Below are positions 1-23,473 of a DNA stretch of 64,000 nt, piece by piece (the stretch's first letter is position 1; each line of letters begins with the position of its first letter). The position numbers and the translations under genes were made by a program. Source of the DNA: a phage. The notes under the pieces are model-generated. The model saw only the letters and a program-made list of their open reading frames with translations, searched no databases and was not told the origin of the DNA. The stretch lies in assembly GCA_020241125.1 (NCBI GenBank), contig GCA_020241125.1_4708.1; one strand, written 5' to 3'.

Positions 1-645
1 TGCAAGATAACGATGATCGTCTAATGTAAACCCCTCTTGAGTATAGCCCGTAAACGATGCGGTGGGGGAAATGGGAATATAAGGAGGGTCGCAATAAACG
101 ACGTCACCCGGAACCACCTTTTCAAGATGCTTCTGGAACCCACCACTTACAATTTCTACCCCCCCCCCCTCGACGAAGGCAGCCTGAAGATGGTTCGCTG
201 CCAGACGCAATTCCTGTTTCGGGAAATAGACGGTCTTATACCGCCCATGCGCAACATTAAATAAACCATCACGATTATAACGACATAAGCCATTGAAACC
301 GTAACGGTTTAAATACATGAAGCAAACTGCGCGTTCCCACGGATCTTCAGCGCGGTTAAAACGTTCACGTATCTCGTAGTAGCTTCTGACGTCGGTAGGA
401 TCCGTTTGAAAAAGACGTTCCACTTCTTCGATGAAAGATTCTGGACGCGCTAGCAACGCAGACCATACTGAGAGAATATCCTCATTCGCATCACCTATCG
501 AATACGCTGGGTACTTAAGAGCAAGCGTAACAGCGCCGGAACCAACGAATGGTTCAACAAGACGCTTTCCTTTAGGTAACACTTTTTCAATCTCAGGGAT
601 AAGCCTGGTTTTGTTCCCAAGCCATTTAAGAAATGTTCTGCTCAT
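1..645 (-). CDS. dam: DNA adenine methyltransferase, Dam family (partial; C-terminus lies beyond window start)
   Basis: Own translation of minus strand from ATG at 645: MSRTFLKWLGNKTRLIPEIEKVLPKGKRLVEPFVGSGAVTLA...FNRAEDPWERAVCFMYLNRYGFNGLCRYN...VVYCDPPY; matches E. coli Dam motifs (FxGxG SAM site, LNRYGYNGLCRYN, DPPY). Open to position 1. Absent from ORF track because it runs off the edge. Confidence 0.85.
   Translation of the reverse strand, partial: MSRTFLKWLGNKTRLIPEIEKVLPKGKRLVEPFVGSGAVTLALKYPAYSIGDANEDILSVWSALLARPESFIEEVERLFQTDPTDVRSYYEIRERFNRAEDPWERAVCFMYLNRYGFNGLCRYNRDGLFNVAHGRYKTVYFPKQELRLAANHLQAAFVEGGGVEIVSGGFQKHLEKVVPGDVVYCDPPYIPISPTASFTGYTQEGFTLDDHRYLA
159..169 (-). repeat. homopolymeric C11 (G11 on coding strand) tract inside dam coding sequence
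   Basis: 11 consecutive C on plus strand; encodes E-G-G-G-V in-frame in Dam. Confidence 0.9.
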
Positions 646-1060
646 CGATTGGCGTTCCGATAATGTTGATGACTATTTCCGTTCGAACCGGATTGGTCAG
701 TACGGCCTGCATGCATTCAAGCATTGTTGGGTTATCCGTAACCACCACATCGGCGTAACACAACGGATGGCTTTCGAACGCTTCGGTATCACTTACTAAC
801 AGAACACCCATCACATTTACGTATTGCGGTATGCGACCACGAATGCGTTGCCACATGTCTTGAGTAAGGTCCTCGCTTTCTAATGCAACCACAACAACAG
901 GACTGATATTTACCGGAAAACGCGGATGCACCGTACGACGAAATGTTATCCAGTTTTCGATGTGGGATAATGCAAGTTCGAGAGAACAGCATTTTGGAGA
1001 AATCTGTATGTTTATTTGTTGAATCAATGAAAGGGGGTTTTGTACAGTCGCTTCAGCCAT
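626..1060 (-). CDS. hypothetical protein (144 aa)
   Basis: ORF track; stop/start TAA-ATG junction with upstream gene; overlaps dam start by 20 nt. Confidence 0.5.
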   Translation of the reverse strand: MAEATVQNPLSLIQQINIQISPKCCSLELALSHIENWITFRRTVHPRFPVNISPVVVVALESEDLTQDMWQRIRGRIPQYVNVMGVLLVSDTEAFESHPLCYADVVVTDNPTMLECMQAVLTNPVRTEIVINIIGTPIDEQNIS

Positions 1061-2038
1061 TTACTTTTTCCTGAAAATTAATGTTGGTAAGCCGTTTCTT
1101 ACAGCATAATACAACACTAAGAGGTTAATCTTACCTGCGGATACCGTAAGCATTTTACGACGACGTGGTAAACTAACCGGTACGGTAGATGCCATCGTTG
1201 CGCTGTTCTTGAACGTTTGGGAATAACGTCGCAGCGACGCTTCACCTAACAATGGAAGGAACAGATCCTCAGTAAGAATATCATCGCAGATATACGTAAT
1301 CGCAAGTAACGGTGGATTCCACTCGTTCAGGAACTCGAAAATCTCGTTTGCGATACCCAGCGCGTTATTGGGAAGCGGAACCTCACGAACGTATTTCTGA
1401 TTGCCTTTATCCAGCAGGATTCTTGACATACAGTAATCGTGGATTATACCCGCAACATCATCCGCTGTTTCTGCGTTCTGCATCAACGCCCGTGCTTCTT
1501 CCCAGGTCAGCTGACGTTTTGTTTCGTAGTAGGTTGGTTTCAAAACCGCGTAAAAATCGTGGATTAAGCGACCAACATCCCCACGGGTTTTCTCTGCCAA
1601 CGCGATCGCGTACGCTTTCTTCTCCGCATCCGTTAAGATCTGATTACGCCACAGTTCGTATTCGTCTAACAGCTCGGTGTATTTGGCTGTCCATTCAGAG
1701 GAAAGATAATAACCAATACTGTCAATCAATGCGTGCGTTAAAACACCCAGACGCTCGCGTTTTGGATCGACTGACGGCTCATAGACAAAAGGTAGCTTCG
1801 GTTTTTCAAAGCCGCTGGCTACGACGGTATCTGAAAAAGCGTTAGCGAAAACACCCATCGGTTTCCATGACGTAAGGAGATCCTGATATAGCATCGGATG
1901 AACGTTATTAATCGCTGTGAGTTTATCATCGAAAAGACTCACGCTTGGATGTTCAGCATTCGCAAGCTCAAAATAAATTCTTTCGAGCAACGCCTTTACC
2001 GCATCGCGTGTCTTATCGATTGGGCCAATAGAAGCCAT
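1061..2038 (-). CDS. hypothetical protein (325 aa)
   Basis: Long ORF on dominant strand; no motif recognised. Confidence 0.6.
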   Translation of the reverse strand: MASIGPIDKTRDAVKALLERIYFELANAEHPSVSLFDDKLTAINNVHPMLYQDLLTSWKPMGVFANAFSDTVVASGFEKPKLPFVYEPSVDPKRERLGVLTHALIDSIGYYLSSEWTAKYTELLDEYELWRNQILTDAEKKAYAIALAEKTRGDVGRLIHDFYAVLKPTYYETKRQLTWEEARALMQNAETADDVAGIIHDYCMSRILLDKGNQKYVREVPLPNNALGIANEIFEFLNEWNPPLLAITYICDDILTEDLFLPLLGEASLRRYSQTFKNSATMASTVPVSLPRRRKMLTVSAGKINLLVLYYAVRNGLPTLIFRKK

Positions 2039-2052
2039 GTAAATTATCCTCG

Positions 2053-2319
2053 TTAAAAAGTACCCATGATCGATAGGGCAATATGGTCTTTGTTCACACG
2101 CGCATTTAACGACATATCGAGACCGTTTTTCTTAATATGCCAGCGTGCCACCAGTTCCGGTTGGTCAACGGAATACAGCCCTTCTCGATGTTGATTCAAC
2201 CATTTAGCAATTGGATGCAGTTTATCGGGATTGACCACACCCAATTCCAACCCACCGGGTGTTAATGGTTTAGAATAAAAGTCAAGTGCGTTCCGTAAAA
2301 AGTCATCCTCGATGCTCAT
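2053..2319 (-). CDS. hypothetical protein (88 aa)
   Basis: ORF track; ATGA overlap with upstream small ORF. Confidence 0.5.
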   Translation of the reverse strand: MSIEDDFLRNALDFYSKPLTPGGLELGVVNPDKLHPIAKWLNQHREGLYSVDQPELVARWHIKKNGLDMSLNARVNKDHIALSIMGTF

Positions 2320-2432
2320 CGTAGCATACCTACCATGCCGATTACAGCAAACAGTACGCCGACAGCGCTATACGCAAGCAGCGCTTTAGCAACCCAAGAT
2401 TTTATTTCCGTATACTCTTCATTATTCACCAT
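2316..2432 (-). CDS. small hydrophobic protein (38 aa, single predicted TM helix)
   Basis: Own translation MVNNEEYTEIKSWVAKALLAYSAVGVLFAVIGMVGMLR; below ORF-track size cut-off; stop overlaps next start (ATGA). Confidence 0.35.
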   Translation of the reverse strand: MVNNEEYTEIKSWVAKALLAYSAVGVLFAVIGMVGMLR

Positions 2433-2604
2433 GTCTCACCTCGTTCGGTTATTGTCTGATCTCATACCTTTACTTAAGCGTATCCCCCGTCATTAAGACG
2501 GGGTGTTTATCACCAGAGACGATTACCTTCCTCGTCCCACCAAGCAATCGCTCGTGTCGACTCGAATGTGTTAGGGCGTAACGTCATGCCCTTGCGGTCA
2601 ACGA

Positions 2605-2883
2605 TTAACCGCAACTCAGTACCGAACCACTCAATCGAGATAAACAAACCCTTCCGAATGATTGCTTGATAACCTGATAGCCGCTCAAAGAGTCGTTGAA
2701 AGATCCATCATGCCCACACGACACTAATGCTTCTGAATAGCGTCGCATCGATTTTGCATCGCTAGGTAAACGTGTTTTACAATCCCACCATAACACAGCG
2801 TACATCAGTGCAGCATTACGCAATCGTAACGATTGAACTGGTGTTAGCTGTCGTCCTTCAACATCATCGATAATGACATACAT
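2605..2883 (-). CDS. hypothetical protein (92 aa)
   Basis: ORF track, dominant strand. Confidence 0.4.
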   Translation of the reverse strand: MYVIIDDVEGRQLTPVQSLRLRNAALMYAVLWWDCKTRLPSDAKSMRRYSEALVSCGHDGSFNDSLSGYQVIKQSFGRVCLSRLSGSVLSCG

Positions 2884-2889
2884 CGCATC

Positions 2890-3144
2890 TTATTCCGCGC
2901 TTGTTTCCTTAACATGGACACATTCCGCATCGATAGTCACACCGGTAGAACGATGGGTCTCGTTGGTAGAATCAAATCCGCTGTTGAACAACACTGCGAA
3001 TGTGTTATTATCCATACGAGCAAAGGTCTCCGCAATACGATCGGGATGAAAATCAGTGCGGCTGATGGTCGATTTCACAAAAACTCCTATAAACAATTTA
3101 ATTATTGGTATTAAGATTAAAGCAGGATCTGCGGACAGCAGCAT
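2890..3144 (-). CDS. hypothetical protein (84 aa)
   Basis: ORF track; overlaps next gene by 28 nt. Confidence 0.3.
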   Translation of the reverse strand: MLLSADPALILIPIIKLFIGVFVKSTISRTDFHPDRIAETFARMDNNTFAVLFNSGFDSTNETHRSTGVTIDAECVHVKETSAE

Positions 3145-21607: not shown

Positions 21608-23062
21608 ATGAAACTCAAACAAAGCTGGAAAGACGAACTTCTCGCGTTAGTAAACAGCAAAAACAGTTTACAACTGACATTAGACGATGTAAAATTTGAA
21701 CTAACGGCACCGGTAAGCGAAGTGCCTGGAACGGTCGTTGTTACAATCAAACCGAACGATAATAGTCGCTACTTTAACGAGCAGTCTCTGACCTACATCC
21801 GTCGAGACATCGCTAAAAACTTCACCGGGATCCCGTTACGGGTTATCGTTAAGCAAGATACCGCTGTAAGGGATATCATCAATACGATTGCTGAACGTTA
21901 CGGATTGGTATTTGACACAGCCGTCGACTTCCTCGAATCCGAGCTGAATAAACAAATTACGTTCGCAGACACCGGTATTAAAGACATTACGGTTCCGGTT
22001 GCAAACACGTCTTATGTTTGGGCGGGTAATCTTCAGTTCAATATTGCTAACGATACGTTAAGCTTGATTACTATCATCAAGAAAACCGATCTTACGAATC
22101 TGGTTTATCTGGATGGTGTTGAAGCTGACACATCTGGTTCGTTACTATTAGCAACCGCAGCACTTGTTAACGAACACGTAAATGAACCGATGGTTGAAAA
22201 CGAAGATATCGTTAATGAATTTATTAACGTTCTTAATACTCTAGCCAAATATGGTGACATAACCGGCGATGAATTAGATGCCGCCTTACAAGCGTACGAT
22301 GAAGCAGAAAACAGGAATAAAACCACGGTAATAACTCTTGGTGATATCCAGTGTGTTGCAACAGAAAAAGACGATTGGGAAATTGGACGTTTACGCGGTC
22401 AGATGGTTCTCGCGCTCAAATCCGATAAATACCCGGAGCCCGATAACACGTTCAGGTTGTTTACGAATGGTGGTGACGTATCGCTAACGTTAAACACAAT
22501 GAAAGATATAAGTATCGATTGGGGTGATGGGAATAAAGTAACGTTGGATGCTGAAGAAAGATACGCGCACCACACATACGCCGACAATAACCAGTACCAA
22601 ATCGAAATTGTGTCTCGTACGGACCCAGATGTGCTGCGACCAAATTATATTTCTGGGAGTGAGATAACCGAAGTAATTCACTGGGCTACTACTTCAACAA
22701 TAGCTCTGAATTTTGTTGGATGCGATAATTTAGCGACTGTTCCAGATGAGATCCCAACTTCGTGGACAACGTTGGACAGCATGTTTGAAAGTTGTACGAA
22801 TTTGAATGATCCGTCTATCTCTAACTGGAATACAAGTAACATCACATCAATGAATGGTATGTTCGGCGGATGCACTAAATTTAACCAACCTTTAGCTGCC
22901 TGGGATGTCAGCTCAGTAACTGACATTGGTGGTATGTTTAACGGATGCAACAGTTTTAACCAAGATTTAAGTGGGTGGCGATTACCGTCAGGAGTAACCC
23001 ACGACAATTACGATAGTGGTGCTTTCTCGTGGCAGACGGAACATAAACCGACGTTCCAGTAA
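21608..23062 (+). CDS. protein with C-terminal DUF285/BspA-type leucine-rich repeats (484 aa)
   Basis: C-terminal repeats NFVGCDNLATVPDEIPTSWTTLDSMFESCTNLNDPSISNWNTSNITSMNGMFGGCTKFNQPLAAWDVSSVTDIGGMFNGCNSFNQDLSGW match the FxxCxxF-NQDIS-xWDVSxVTxMxxMF pattern. Confidence 0.7.
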   Translation: MKLKQSWKDELLALVNSKNSLQLTLDDVKFELTAPVSEVPGTVVVTIKPNDNSRYFNEQSLTYIRRDIAKNFTGIPLRVIVKQDTAVRDIINTIAERYGLVFDTAVDFLESELNKQITFADTGIKDITVPVANTSYVWAGNLQFNIANDTLSLITIIKKTDLTNLVYLDGVEADTSGSLLLATAALVNEHVNEPMVENEDIVNEFINVLNTLAKYGDITGDELDAALQAYDEAENRNKTTVITLGDIQCVATEKDDWEIGRLRGQMVLALKSDKYPEPDNTFRLFTNGGDVSLTLNTMKDISIDWGDGNKVTLDAEERYAHHTYADNNQYQIEIVSRTDPDVLRPNYISGSEITEVIHWATTSTIALNFVGCDNLATVPDEIPTSWTTLDSMFESCTNLNDPSISNWNTSNITSMNGMFGGCTKFNQPLAAWDVSSVTDIGGMFNGCNSFNQDLSGWRLPSGVTHDNYDSGAFSWQTEHKPTFQ

Positions 23063-23083
23063 AAAAAAAAATAGTTAGCATAT

Positions 23084-23122
23084 CTTCCTCCCTACCCATA
23101 ACGGGCGGGGAGGAAGGTTTTA
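23084..23122 (+). terminator. intrinsic terminator (CTTCCTCCC/GGGGAGGAAG + GTTTTATGG)
   Basis: Follows stop and an A11 run at 23061-23071. Confidence 0.65.
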
Positions 23123-23134
23123 TGGCGTTATGAC

Positions 23135-23473
23135 TTAGAACCAGAGTTCTTTCATGAAGTAGGCTTCCGTATCGTAGATAAGCCACCCATCGGGGATTTC
23201 TAAAGGATCGTCTTCGGTTAAGGTGAGCATGTGCAGGGCGAACGCACGCTTAATATCTTCCAACAGCTTATCATCACCGTAACCTTCGGGTAGTTTACGG
23301 TCAGCCAGCTGAGTTTGTTTATAGACATCGCGGAACGCTTCAGGATTATGTTTATCCATCGGGAATTGTTCAGCAGCCTGAACCATCGAAAGCGTCCAGC
23401 TTACAACATTGTAACGCTCACCGTTAATTTCACTGAACTGATCATCGATTAAACAGATTTGTTGTATATTCAT
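23135..23473 (-). CDS. hypothetical protein (112 aa)
   Basis: ORF track. Confidence 0.5.
   Translation of the reverse strand: MNIQQICLIDDQFSEINGERYNVVSWTLSMVQAAEQFPMDKHNPEAFRDVYKQTQLADRKLPEGYGDDKLLEDIKRAFALHMLTLTEDDPLEIPDGWLIYDTEAYFMKELWF

Follow-up and report, generated by a model that had tools for sequence, protein, structure and literature searches.

Phase-variable methyltransferases have been described in bacteria as phasevarions, built on Type III mod genes in Haemophilus, Neisseria, Helicobacter and Moraxella (reviewed in PMC12707154 and PMC13076061), and in Campylobacter jejuni as cj0031, a Type IIG enzyme under the control of a poly-G tract (PMC4889913). On the phage side, hypermutable poly-G tracts have been attributed to Campylobacter phages (Sorensen et al. 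2021, Cell Rep 35:109214, as cited in PMC12823448), and orphan Dam methyltransferases include T4 Dam, P1 Dmt and others (Murphy et al. 2013, as cited in PMC12707154). Here we describe a homopolymer of 11 G residues (G11) on the coding strand of a Dam methyltransferase gene that lies at the start of a 64,000-nucleotide stretch of phage DNA (contig GCA_020241125.1_4708.1 of GenBank assembly GCA_020241125.1; the whole stretch is hereafter the window). Our results favor a model whereby this tract is a genuine slipped-strand hypermutable element that probably toggles an orphan phage Dam between an ON state (G11) and OFF states (G10, G12 and G13). What we observe directly is the frame logic of the tract, its length polymorphism on identical backgrounds, the intact reading frames downstream of it, and purifying selection on the gene.

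As in phasevarions and cj0031, the repeat lies within the methyltransferase open reading frame (ORF), its length appears to change by slipped-strand mispairing such that the frame is toggled, and ON and OFF alleles coexist in close relatives with the downstream ORF intact. Unlike those genes, which reside in bacterial chromosomes, the gene described here is carried by a virulent jumbo phage and encodes an orphan D12-class Dam (alpha-type, GATC-like) rather than a component of a Type III or Type IIG restriction-modification system; moreover, the hosts are Enterobacteriaceae, in which phase variation by simple sequence repeats is uncommon. With the Campylobacter phages the locus shares a coding poly-G tract in a lytic phage, length variation of which yields genetically mixed populations in that system; it differs from them in that the tract lies in a DNA-modification gene and that host and phage both have a moderate GC content and few such tracts, G11 being the sole G/C tract in the 64 kb. 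The tracts of the Campylobacter phages are said to lie in receptor-binding or structural genes and to alter host recognition. Like T4 Dam and P1 Dmt, the enzyme is a stand-alone D12 adenine methylase that lacks a partner endonuclease and presumably serves anti-restriction or phage DNA transactions, whereas none of the orphan enzymes cited there is reported with a frame-toggling repeat. Unlike other phage Dam proteins, the nearest of which are 44-46% identical, it holds the tract in a clade-specific insertion of seven residues.

The assignment of the gene to the Dam family, as proposed in a first-pass annotation made from the letters of the window, is borne out by several lines of evidence. The ORF is open for all 215 codons up to the window edge, and the full protein in identical relatives has 275 aa (P0171). 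It matches Pfam PF02086 (D12 N6-adenine methyltransferase) with E = 3.8e-52 and 178 bits against a cutoff of 22, over profile positions 1-210 of 253, the rest of the profile falling beyond the window edge. The E. coli Dam structures 2G1P and 4GOL are matched over residues 2-274 with E = 1e-68 at ~45% identity, DpnM (2DPM) with E = 9e-42 and T4 Dam with E = 1e-14. Motifs I (FVGSGA) and IV (DPPY) are shared with E. coli Dam and follow each other in the order of the alpha class; in an alignment of 32 sequences F33, V34 and G35 of the former and D186, P187, P188 and Y189 of the latter are invariant. Among nine E. coli Dam residues that we take to contact DNA, seven are kept (K9, N120, L122, R124, R137, Y138 and K139) and two are changed (Y119 to F and P134 to A), and because seven of these nine presumed contacts are conserved, GATC specificity of the phage Dam is likely. 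The window contains 283 GATC sites (observed/expected 1.16). A further difference from E. coli Dam is the tract-bearing insertion, (F)VEGGGV, which is absent from 27 of 27 more distant homologues as well and is located ahead of motif IV, between the preceding helix and strand. In an AlphaFold model of the protein (pLDDT 88, pTM 0.88) the three Gly residues make up a surface turn that links helix 143-158 to strand 162-166 and lies upstream of the strand with DPPY; as a surface turn inside a clade-specific insertion, the segment encoded by the tract is predicted to be structurally harmless.

A run-length scan places C11 on the plus strand, in the context tttcta CCCCCCCCCCC tcgacg, and hence G11 on the coding minus strand. 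In the ORF it is read as GAG GGG GGG GGG GTA (E159, G160-G162, V163), the remaining two minus-strand frames being closed, and it sits between NRYGFNGLCRYN (aa 113-124) and DPPY, exactly as the first-pass annotation had placed it. The next-longest run of C or G in the window has 6 nt, such that G11 is the sole G/C homopolymer exceeding that length, while 0.008 C runs of at least 11 nt are expected from base composition. GGG is the rarest of the Gly codons in the long ORFs of the window (14.6%), GAG makes up 34% of Glu codons, and the probability that E-G-G-G-V is encoded as G11 under the phage's own codon usage is ~0.001. The tract is not a chance feature, and at 11 nt inside an ORF it is longer than the ~8 nt at which G/C runs become unstable.

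Evidence that the tract changes in length comes from relatives with flanks identical to the window, all known from short-read assemblies (Logan, ENA and NCBI pathogen surveillance). Pure tracts with DNA-verified lengths comprise G10 at 3 loci, G11 at 10, G12 at 7 and G13 at 2 (Table 1). Only G11 gives the 275-aa enzyme, and the products of the other three lengths, the N-termini of which are identical to the window protein as is that of P0171, end before DPPY. The backgrounds are nearly identical, with 0-2 single-nucleotide polymorphisms (SNPs) per 2.1-3.5 kb: L094 (GCA_012441205.1) has G11 and agrees with the window at 2145 of 2145 bases; L076 (GCA_020395325.1) has G12, and the extra G is its sole difference from the window across 2,145 bp; L094 and L076 differ over 3.5 kb by the tract G and one SNP; and L089 has G10 and one SNP relative to the window. 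Of the other assemblies, GCA_020241865.1 carries G12 and GCA_958330875.1 carries G10. Within a single project, SRR12795771 (G11), SRR12795745 (G12) and SRR12795744 (G13) are otherwise identical over ~3.5 kb. A lineage with 79% amino-acid identity also carries pure tracts, of G11 in L099 and G13 in L109, and its cluster contains the corresponding truncated products; free-standing C-terminal ORFs of 99-113 aa are likewise found in the protein clusters. Six further contigs terminate within the tract, as would be seen if the reads were of mixed length there or if they stuttered. The first-pass annotation had named an invariant tract length as what would speak against slipped-strand switching; among the assemblies the length is clearly not invariant, ranging from G10 to G13, and the slippage that it suspected agrees with these alleles.

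The truncated products should be inactive, because they lack motif IV along with 113 of the 275 residues, roughly 40% of the protein, at the C-terminus. With the tract set to the in-frame length, 13 of 13 OFF loci for which downstream sequence is available have 113 intact codons as far as the normal stop; none has a second disabling mutation, and the OFF states are therefore young or reversible. The ratio of nonsynonymous to synonymous substitution rates (dN/dS) is ~0.1-0.15 upstream of the tract and likewise downstream. Between the main lineages and the one with 79% identity (L099) synonymous divergence has reached saturation, and pure G11 is present in both. Cluster members have E, R and K at residues encoded by the tract, and since the loop accepts these residues, constraint on the protein does not account for the use of GGG three times in a row. 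An active split enzyme, reassembled from the N- and C-terminal ORFs, was also considered. In the window lineage it was rejected: translation from the first start that could be used downstream, GTG at 'VVPGD' (P0136), would leave out a core strand. In the lineage with 79% identity (P0156, P0158 and P0159) a GTG directly follows the tract and a 113-aa C-terminal ORF, 'MEIV...', is annotated; in OFF alleles of this lineage the two halves might be co-expressed, and their reassembly is conceivable.

Alleles in which the homopolymer is interrupted provide an internal control. All interruptions for which DNA was read are G to A (Table 1). Interrupted alleles are in frame in ~71 listed contigs, versus 2 with a plain frameshift (P0006, G6AG5), and 5 further contigs of this class have truncated products with an odd, unverified tract sequence (P0132, P0133 and P0152). 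Pure-tract alleles, on the other hand, are in frame in ~24 contigs and definitely frameshifted in ~29, and 19 additional contigs have 162-aa forms, some of which reflect truncation at the end of a contig (6 of 9 for P0144). Frameshifts are thus tied to the homopolymer and not to the gene. The first-pass annotation had also held that relatives encoding GGG without a homopolymer would count against a switch. Such relatives do exist (GGGAGGAGGGG, G6AG4). The interrupted alleles sit beside pure-tract alleles in every lineage and, being almost never frameshifted, strengthen rather than refute the reading of the pure tract as a mutational hotspot. The recurrent G-to-A changes are best read as producing stable, 'locked-ON' alleles. 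The frameshifted interrupted tract GGGGGGAGGGGG (G6AG5) is seen in two runs of one project (L002 and L003), compared with the in-frame G6AG4 of L008 and L009; it could have arisen by slippage in a short G4/G5 run or, from a G12 OFF allele, by a later G-to-A change, and it may represent an OFF state on its way to fixation. Lesions away from the tract comprise an in-frame internal deletion in P0150 (257 aa) and a frameshift after DPPYIPI in P0153 (230 aa); Dam is therefore occasionally inactivated elsewhere in the gene, too.

Table 1 Features of the Dam locus in window coordinates, and tract alleles with their products in relatives
Feature or allele	Position	Strand	Description
Dam accessory cassette, in-window part	1..660	-	850 bp in relatives, 33 bp instead in Goslar
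D12-class Dam gene, 5' 215 codons	1..645	-	ATG at 645; runs off the left window end
Motif IV, catalytic DPPY, aa 186-189	79..90	-	Downstream of the tract; missing from every out-of-frame product
TGA stop	122..124	-	Used with G12 (174 aa, P0135, L076-L081)
TAG stop right after the tract	156..158	-	Used with G10 (162 aa, P0144, L082) and G13 (163 aa, P0147, L091)
G11 homopolymer	159..169	-	Last base of Glu159, Gly160-162, first base of Val163; in-frame length 3n+2
Motif I (AdoMet binding), F33-V-G-S-G-A38	532..549	-	Upstream of the tract; kept in truncated products
G10, flanks identical to window			L082, L087, L089
G11, flanks identical to window			L093-L098
G12, flanks identical to window			L076-L081, L092
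G13, flanks identical to window			L091
Product P0144, 162 aa			Ends ...EGGG, stop; G10 in 3/9 loci, other 6 contig-end truncations
Product P0147, 163 aa			Ends ...EGGGG, stop; G13
Product P0135, 174 aa			Ends ...EGGGGRNCKWWVPEAS, stop; G12
Product P0171, 275 aa			Full length; G11
GGGAGGAGGGG, interrupted			L004, L005, L007, L100-L108
G6AG4, interrupted			L008, L009; in frame
G5AG5, interrupted			L115; EGEGV
GAG9, interrupted			L010; ERGGV
EGRGV and EGKGV, interrupted			Known from protein only

Several points weigh against the tract as a switch. The in-frame share of pure-tract alleles, ~40-45%, is near the 1/3 expected without selection on state, and the ON and OFF counts are descriptive rather than unbiased frequencies, the loci having been picked by look-up of particular proteins with partial lists of cluster members. 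Mutability may be a liability rather than a selected property, because the related Escherichia phage vB_EcoM_Goslar (Goslar) dispenses with the gene and stable, interrupted alleles have become fixed in many lineages. The known hosts (E. coli, Salmonella and Shigella) are all dam+ and therefore cannot carry methyl-GATC-dependent nucleases, by which one obvious benefit of the OFF state is removed. Finally, PCR-based Illumina libraries are prone to errors at long G runs, and the contig breaks in the tract could stem from such stutter.

The in-frame share and the absence of the gene from Goslar also speak for the likeliest of the alternatives, namely that the tract is a real hotspot without a function in switching, at which OFF alleles are dead-end losses of a dispensable gene and selection favors interruption. 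Goslar grows lytically and has no part of the cassette, at least six different patterns of G-to-A interruption are established, together making up about half of the contigs listed, and the phage nucleus already shields DNA from restriction (PMC12707154), so that Dam may matter little. Dead-end losses would, however, be expected neither to leave 13 of 13 OFF alleles free of a second lesion nor to leave purifying selection after the tract equal to that before it. Likewise, the pure tract persists across saturated synonymous divergence in a tolerant loop despite its threefold use of the rarest Gly codon, and L116 has a pure G11 amid a lineage that otherwise carries GGGAGGAGGGG. Codon choice, persistence and loop tolerance speak for selection on the repeat, and the fixed interrupted alleles and the absence of the gene from Goslar speak against it. 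We regard a hotspot devoid of switch function as rather unlikely.

Alternatively, there might be one true tract length, with G10, G12 and G13, the split ORFs and the contig breaks all arising from homopolymer errors in short reads. The short-read origin of every variant and the six contigs that end within the tract would fit this explanation, as would the odd tract translations EGRGWGG and EGVGG, each followed by a stop (P0132 and P0133), which resemble noisy G-rich reads; moreover, errors would also confine frameshifts to homopolymer alleles. Arguing against it, the consensus is reproducible: the same G12 contig (SRR12795745) was recovered from 4 samples, P0135 (G12) occurs on 10 contigs including two from independent NCBI assemblies, and P0171 (G11) occurs on 11 contigs. 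If the consensus at G11 were wrong in over half of the assemblies, the error rate would greatly exceed what Illumina sequencing generally shows, and differences of up to 3 nt (G10 versus G13) exceed the usual stutter of +/-1. Assembled poly-G lengths are routinely used in studies of Campylobacter phasomes. Individual calls and the contig breaks may be of this origin, but agreement across samples and assemblers is hard to square with it, and an artefact of this kind seems distinctly unlikely overall.

Highly improbable, in our view, is leaky control, in which RNA polymerase slippage or ribosomal frameshifting would partly restore the frame and tract length would tune the dose of Dam: long homopolymers are known sites of transcriptional slippage, chimalliviruses have their own non-canonical RNA polymerases, and the RNA near the tract folds more stably than shuffled sequences, but most of the slippage sites that have been characterised consist of A or T, translation in the G10 and G13 frames meets TAG immediately 3' of the tract, and a conserved frameshift-stimulating element was not identified. 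The minus-strand RNA of window positions 110-220 has a folding energy of -39.6 kcal/mol (z = -2.76 versus shuffled sequences), and in the fold the G run pairs with an upstream C/U-rich stretch, CUGCCUUC, which may be a mere by-product of the G run; the fold was judged insufficient to propose a frameshift signal. A promoter and terminator scan of window 1-2400 yielded nothing exceeding the shuffled background.

In our model of a slipped-strand switch, single G residues would be gained and lost by polymerase slippage during replication of the phage DNA, and the slippage would probably escape host mismatch repair because replication occurs inside the phage nucleus. As a consequence of slippage, any phage population would be a mix of interconverting Dam-ON and Dam-OFF genotypes. 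We speculate that ON bursts would give progeny with GATC-methylated DNA and OFF bursts progeny with unmethylated DNA, provided that host Dam cannot reach the phage nucleus; because the protein nucleus probably excludes host Dam, the phage's own Dam alone would set the GATC methylation of the progeny. The benefit of being ON might be the evasion of GATC-directed, methylation-sensitive nucleases upon entry into a new host, and its cost might lie, for example, in what additional Dam does to the host in the course of a persistent carrier-state infection. It is possible, though doubtful, that the phase-variable Dam functions as an epigenetic bet-hedging device of Goslar-like chimalliviruses, in which methylated and unmethylated virions form subpopulations.

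The neighborhood of the gene places it in such a phage. Window positions 661-3000 are 96.7% identical to Goslar, a chimallivirus, and positions 1-660 have no counterpart there, the homology starting at 661. Judged by these matches, the source is a Goslar-like, nucleus-forming jumbo phage. When L094 is aligned to the Goslar locus (L001), 850 bp (L094 1486-2335) with the Dam ORF alone correspond to 33 bp, with flank homology of 96% and 93%. Because Goslar has these 33 bp in place of the 850-bp cassette, Dam is an accessory gene within the genus. No restriction endonuclease gene was found beside Dam, as the cassette carries the Dam ORF only and the flanks are conserved Goslar hypothetical genes; the methylase is considered an orphan because the cassette holds nothing else and Goslar has the flanking genes without Dam. 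Window positions 1-2145 are 100% identical to a 198,944-bp contig, AASNJI010000001.1, in the bacterial isolate assembly of L094 (GCA_012441205.1), and many relatives are on contigs of 236-249 kb in surveillance assemblies of E. coli O157, Salmonella and Shigella. This occurrence in isolate assemblies fits the recently described persistent or 'BAPS' Goslarviruses. Hundreds of their genomes, ~237 of which PMC12768965 covers, have been recovered from assemblies of E. coli, Salmonella and Shigella isolates and interpreted as persistent or carrier-state infections (PMC12768965; bioRxiv 10.1101/2024.12.31.630880); neither of these two reports mentions a methylase, a homopolymer or a frameshift.

The protein search returned 6 close clusters (at least 79% identity), with many split forms among their members, every other homologue being at most 50% identical. 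A scan of IMG/VR with the Dam protein gave 65 loci with a best identity of 43% and no close relative, a megablast search against complete RefSeq E. coli genomes and PLSDB plasmids gave no match, and blastn of the Dam DNA against GenBank phages gave a single, chance-like match of 51 bp. Pattern scans of JGI metagenomes and GTDB genomes returned 10 stretches, 4 of which are true Goslar-like loci (L109, L111, L115 and L116) and 6 of which were set aside as chance matches. In L093, L094 and L095 the Dam ORF is 100% identical, whereas the upstream 1.5 kb differs by ~3.5-5% (70-77 mismatches); the identity of the ORF next to diverged upstream DNA suggests that the Dam cassette has recently been exchanged by recombination among Goslar-like phages.

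Elsewhere in the window, ORFs of at least 150 aa are strongly one-directional (47 of 53 on the minus strand). A second long homopolymer, A11 at 23061-23071, starts in the TAA of an ORF for a BspA-like leucine-rich-repeat protein (484 aa, 21608-23062, plus strand) and is followed by a GC-rich hairpin at ~23086-23118, ahead of a convergent minus-strand gene (23135-23473). As a second coding switch A11 was rejected, being the tail of a hairpin terminator between convergent genes; together, A11 and the hairpin look like an ordinary bidirectional intrinsic terminator. Among palindromes, CTAG (observed/expected 0.14), GGCC (0.38) and TATA (0.57) are strongly depleted and ACGT (1.86) and TCGA (1.62) enriched, GATC not being depleted; as the DNA of this phage is shielded in a nucleus, its avoidance of GGCC may be worth following up.

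In our literature searches neither a phage Dam under repeat control nor this particular tract turned up. Bacterial pathogens adapted to a host characteristically have phase-variable methylases, and the hypermutable poly-G tracts so far known from phages are those in genes for receptor binding in Campylobacter phages. If such a tract toggles the frame of an orphan Dam in a nucleus-forming jumbo phage of enterobacteria, the logic of contingency loci would extend to the modification of phage DNA. In many records annotation pipelines split Dam into two ORFs, and such records are better read as a state of tract length than as a pseudogene. The alleles also offer a natural ON/OFF pair for asking whether host Dam reaches DNA within the phage nucleus and what purpose a methylase serves in a phage that is already shielded from restriction. 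Finally, if the bet-hedging reading is true, the locus would represent the first switch of the phasevarion kind in any virulent phage, one in which restriction evasion at entry into a new host would be tuned against the cost of extra Dam in persistent carrier-state infections.

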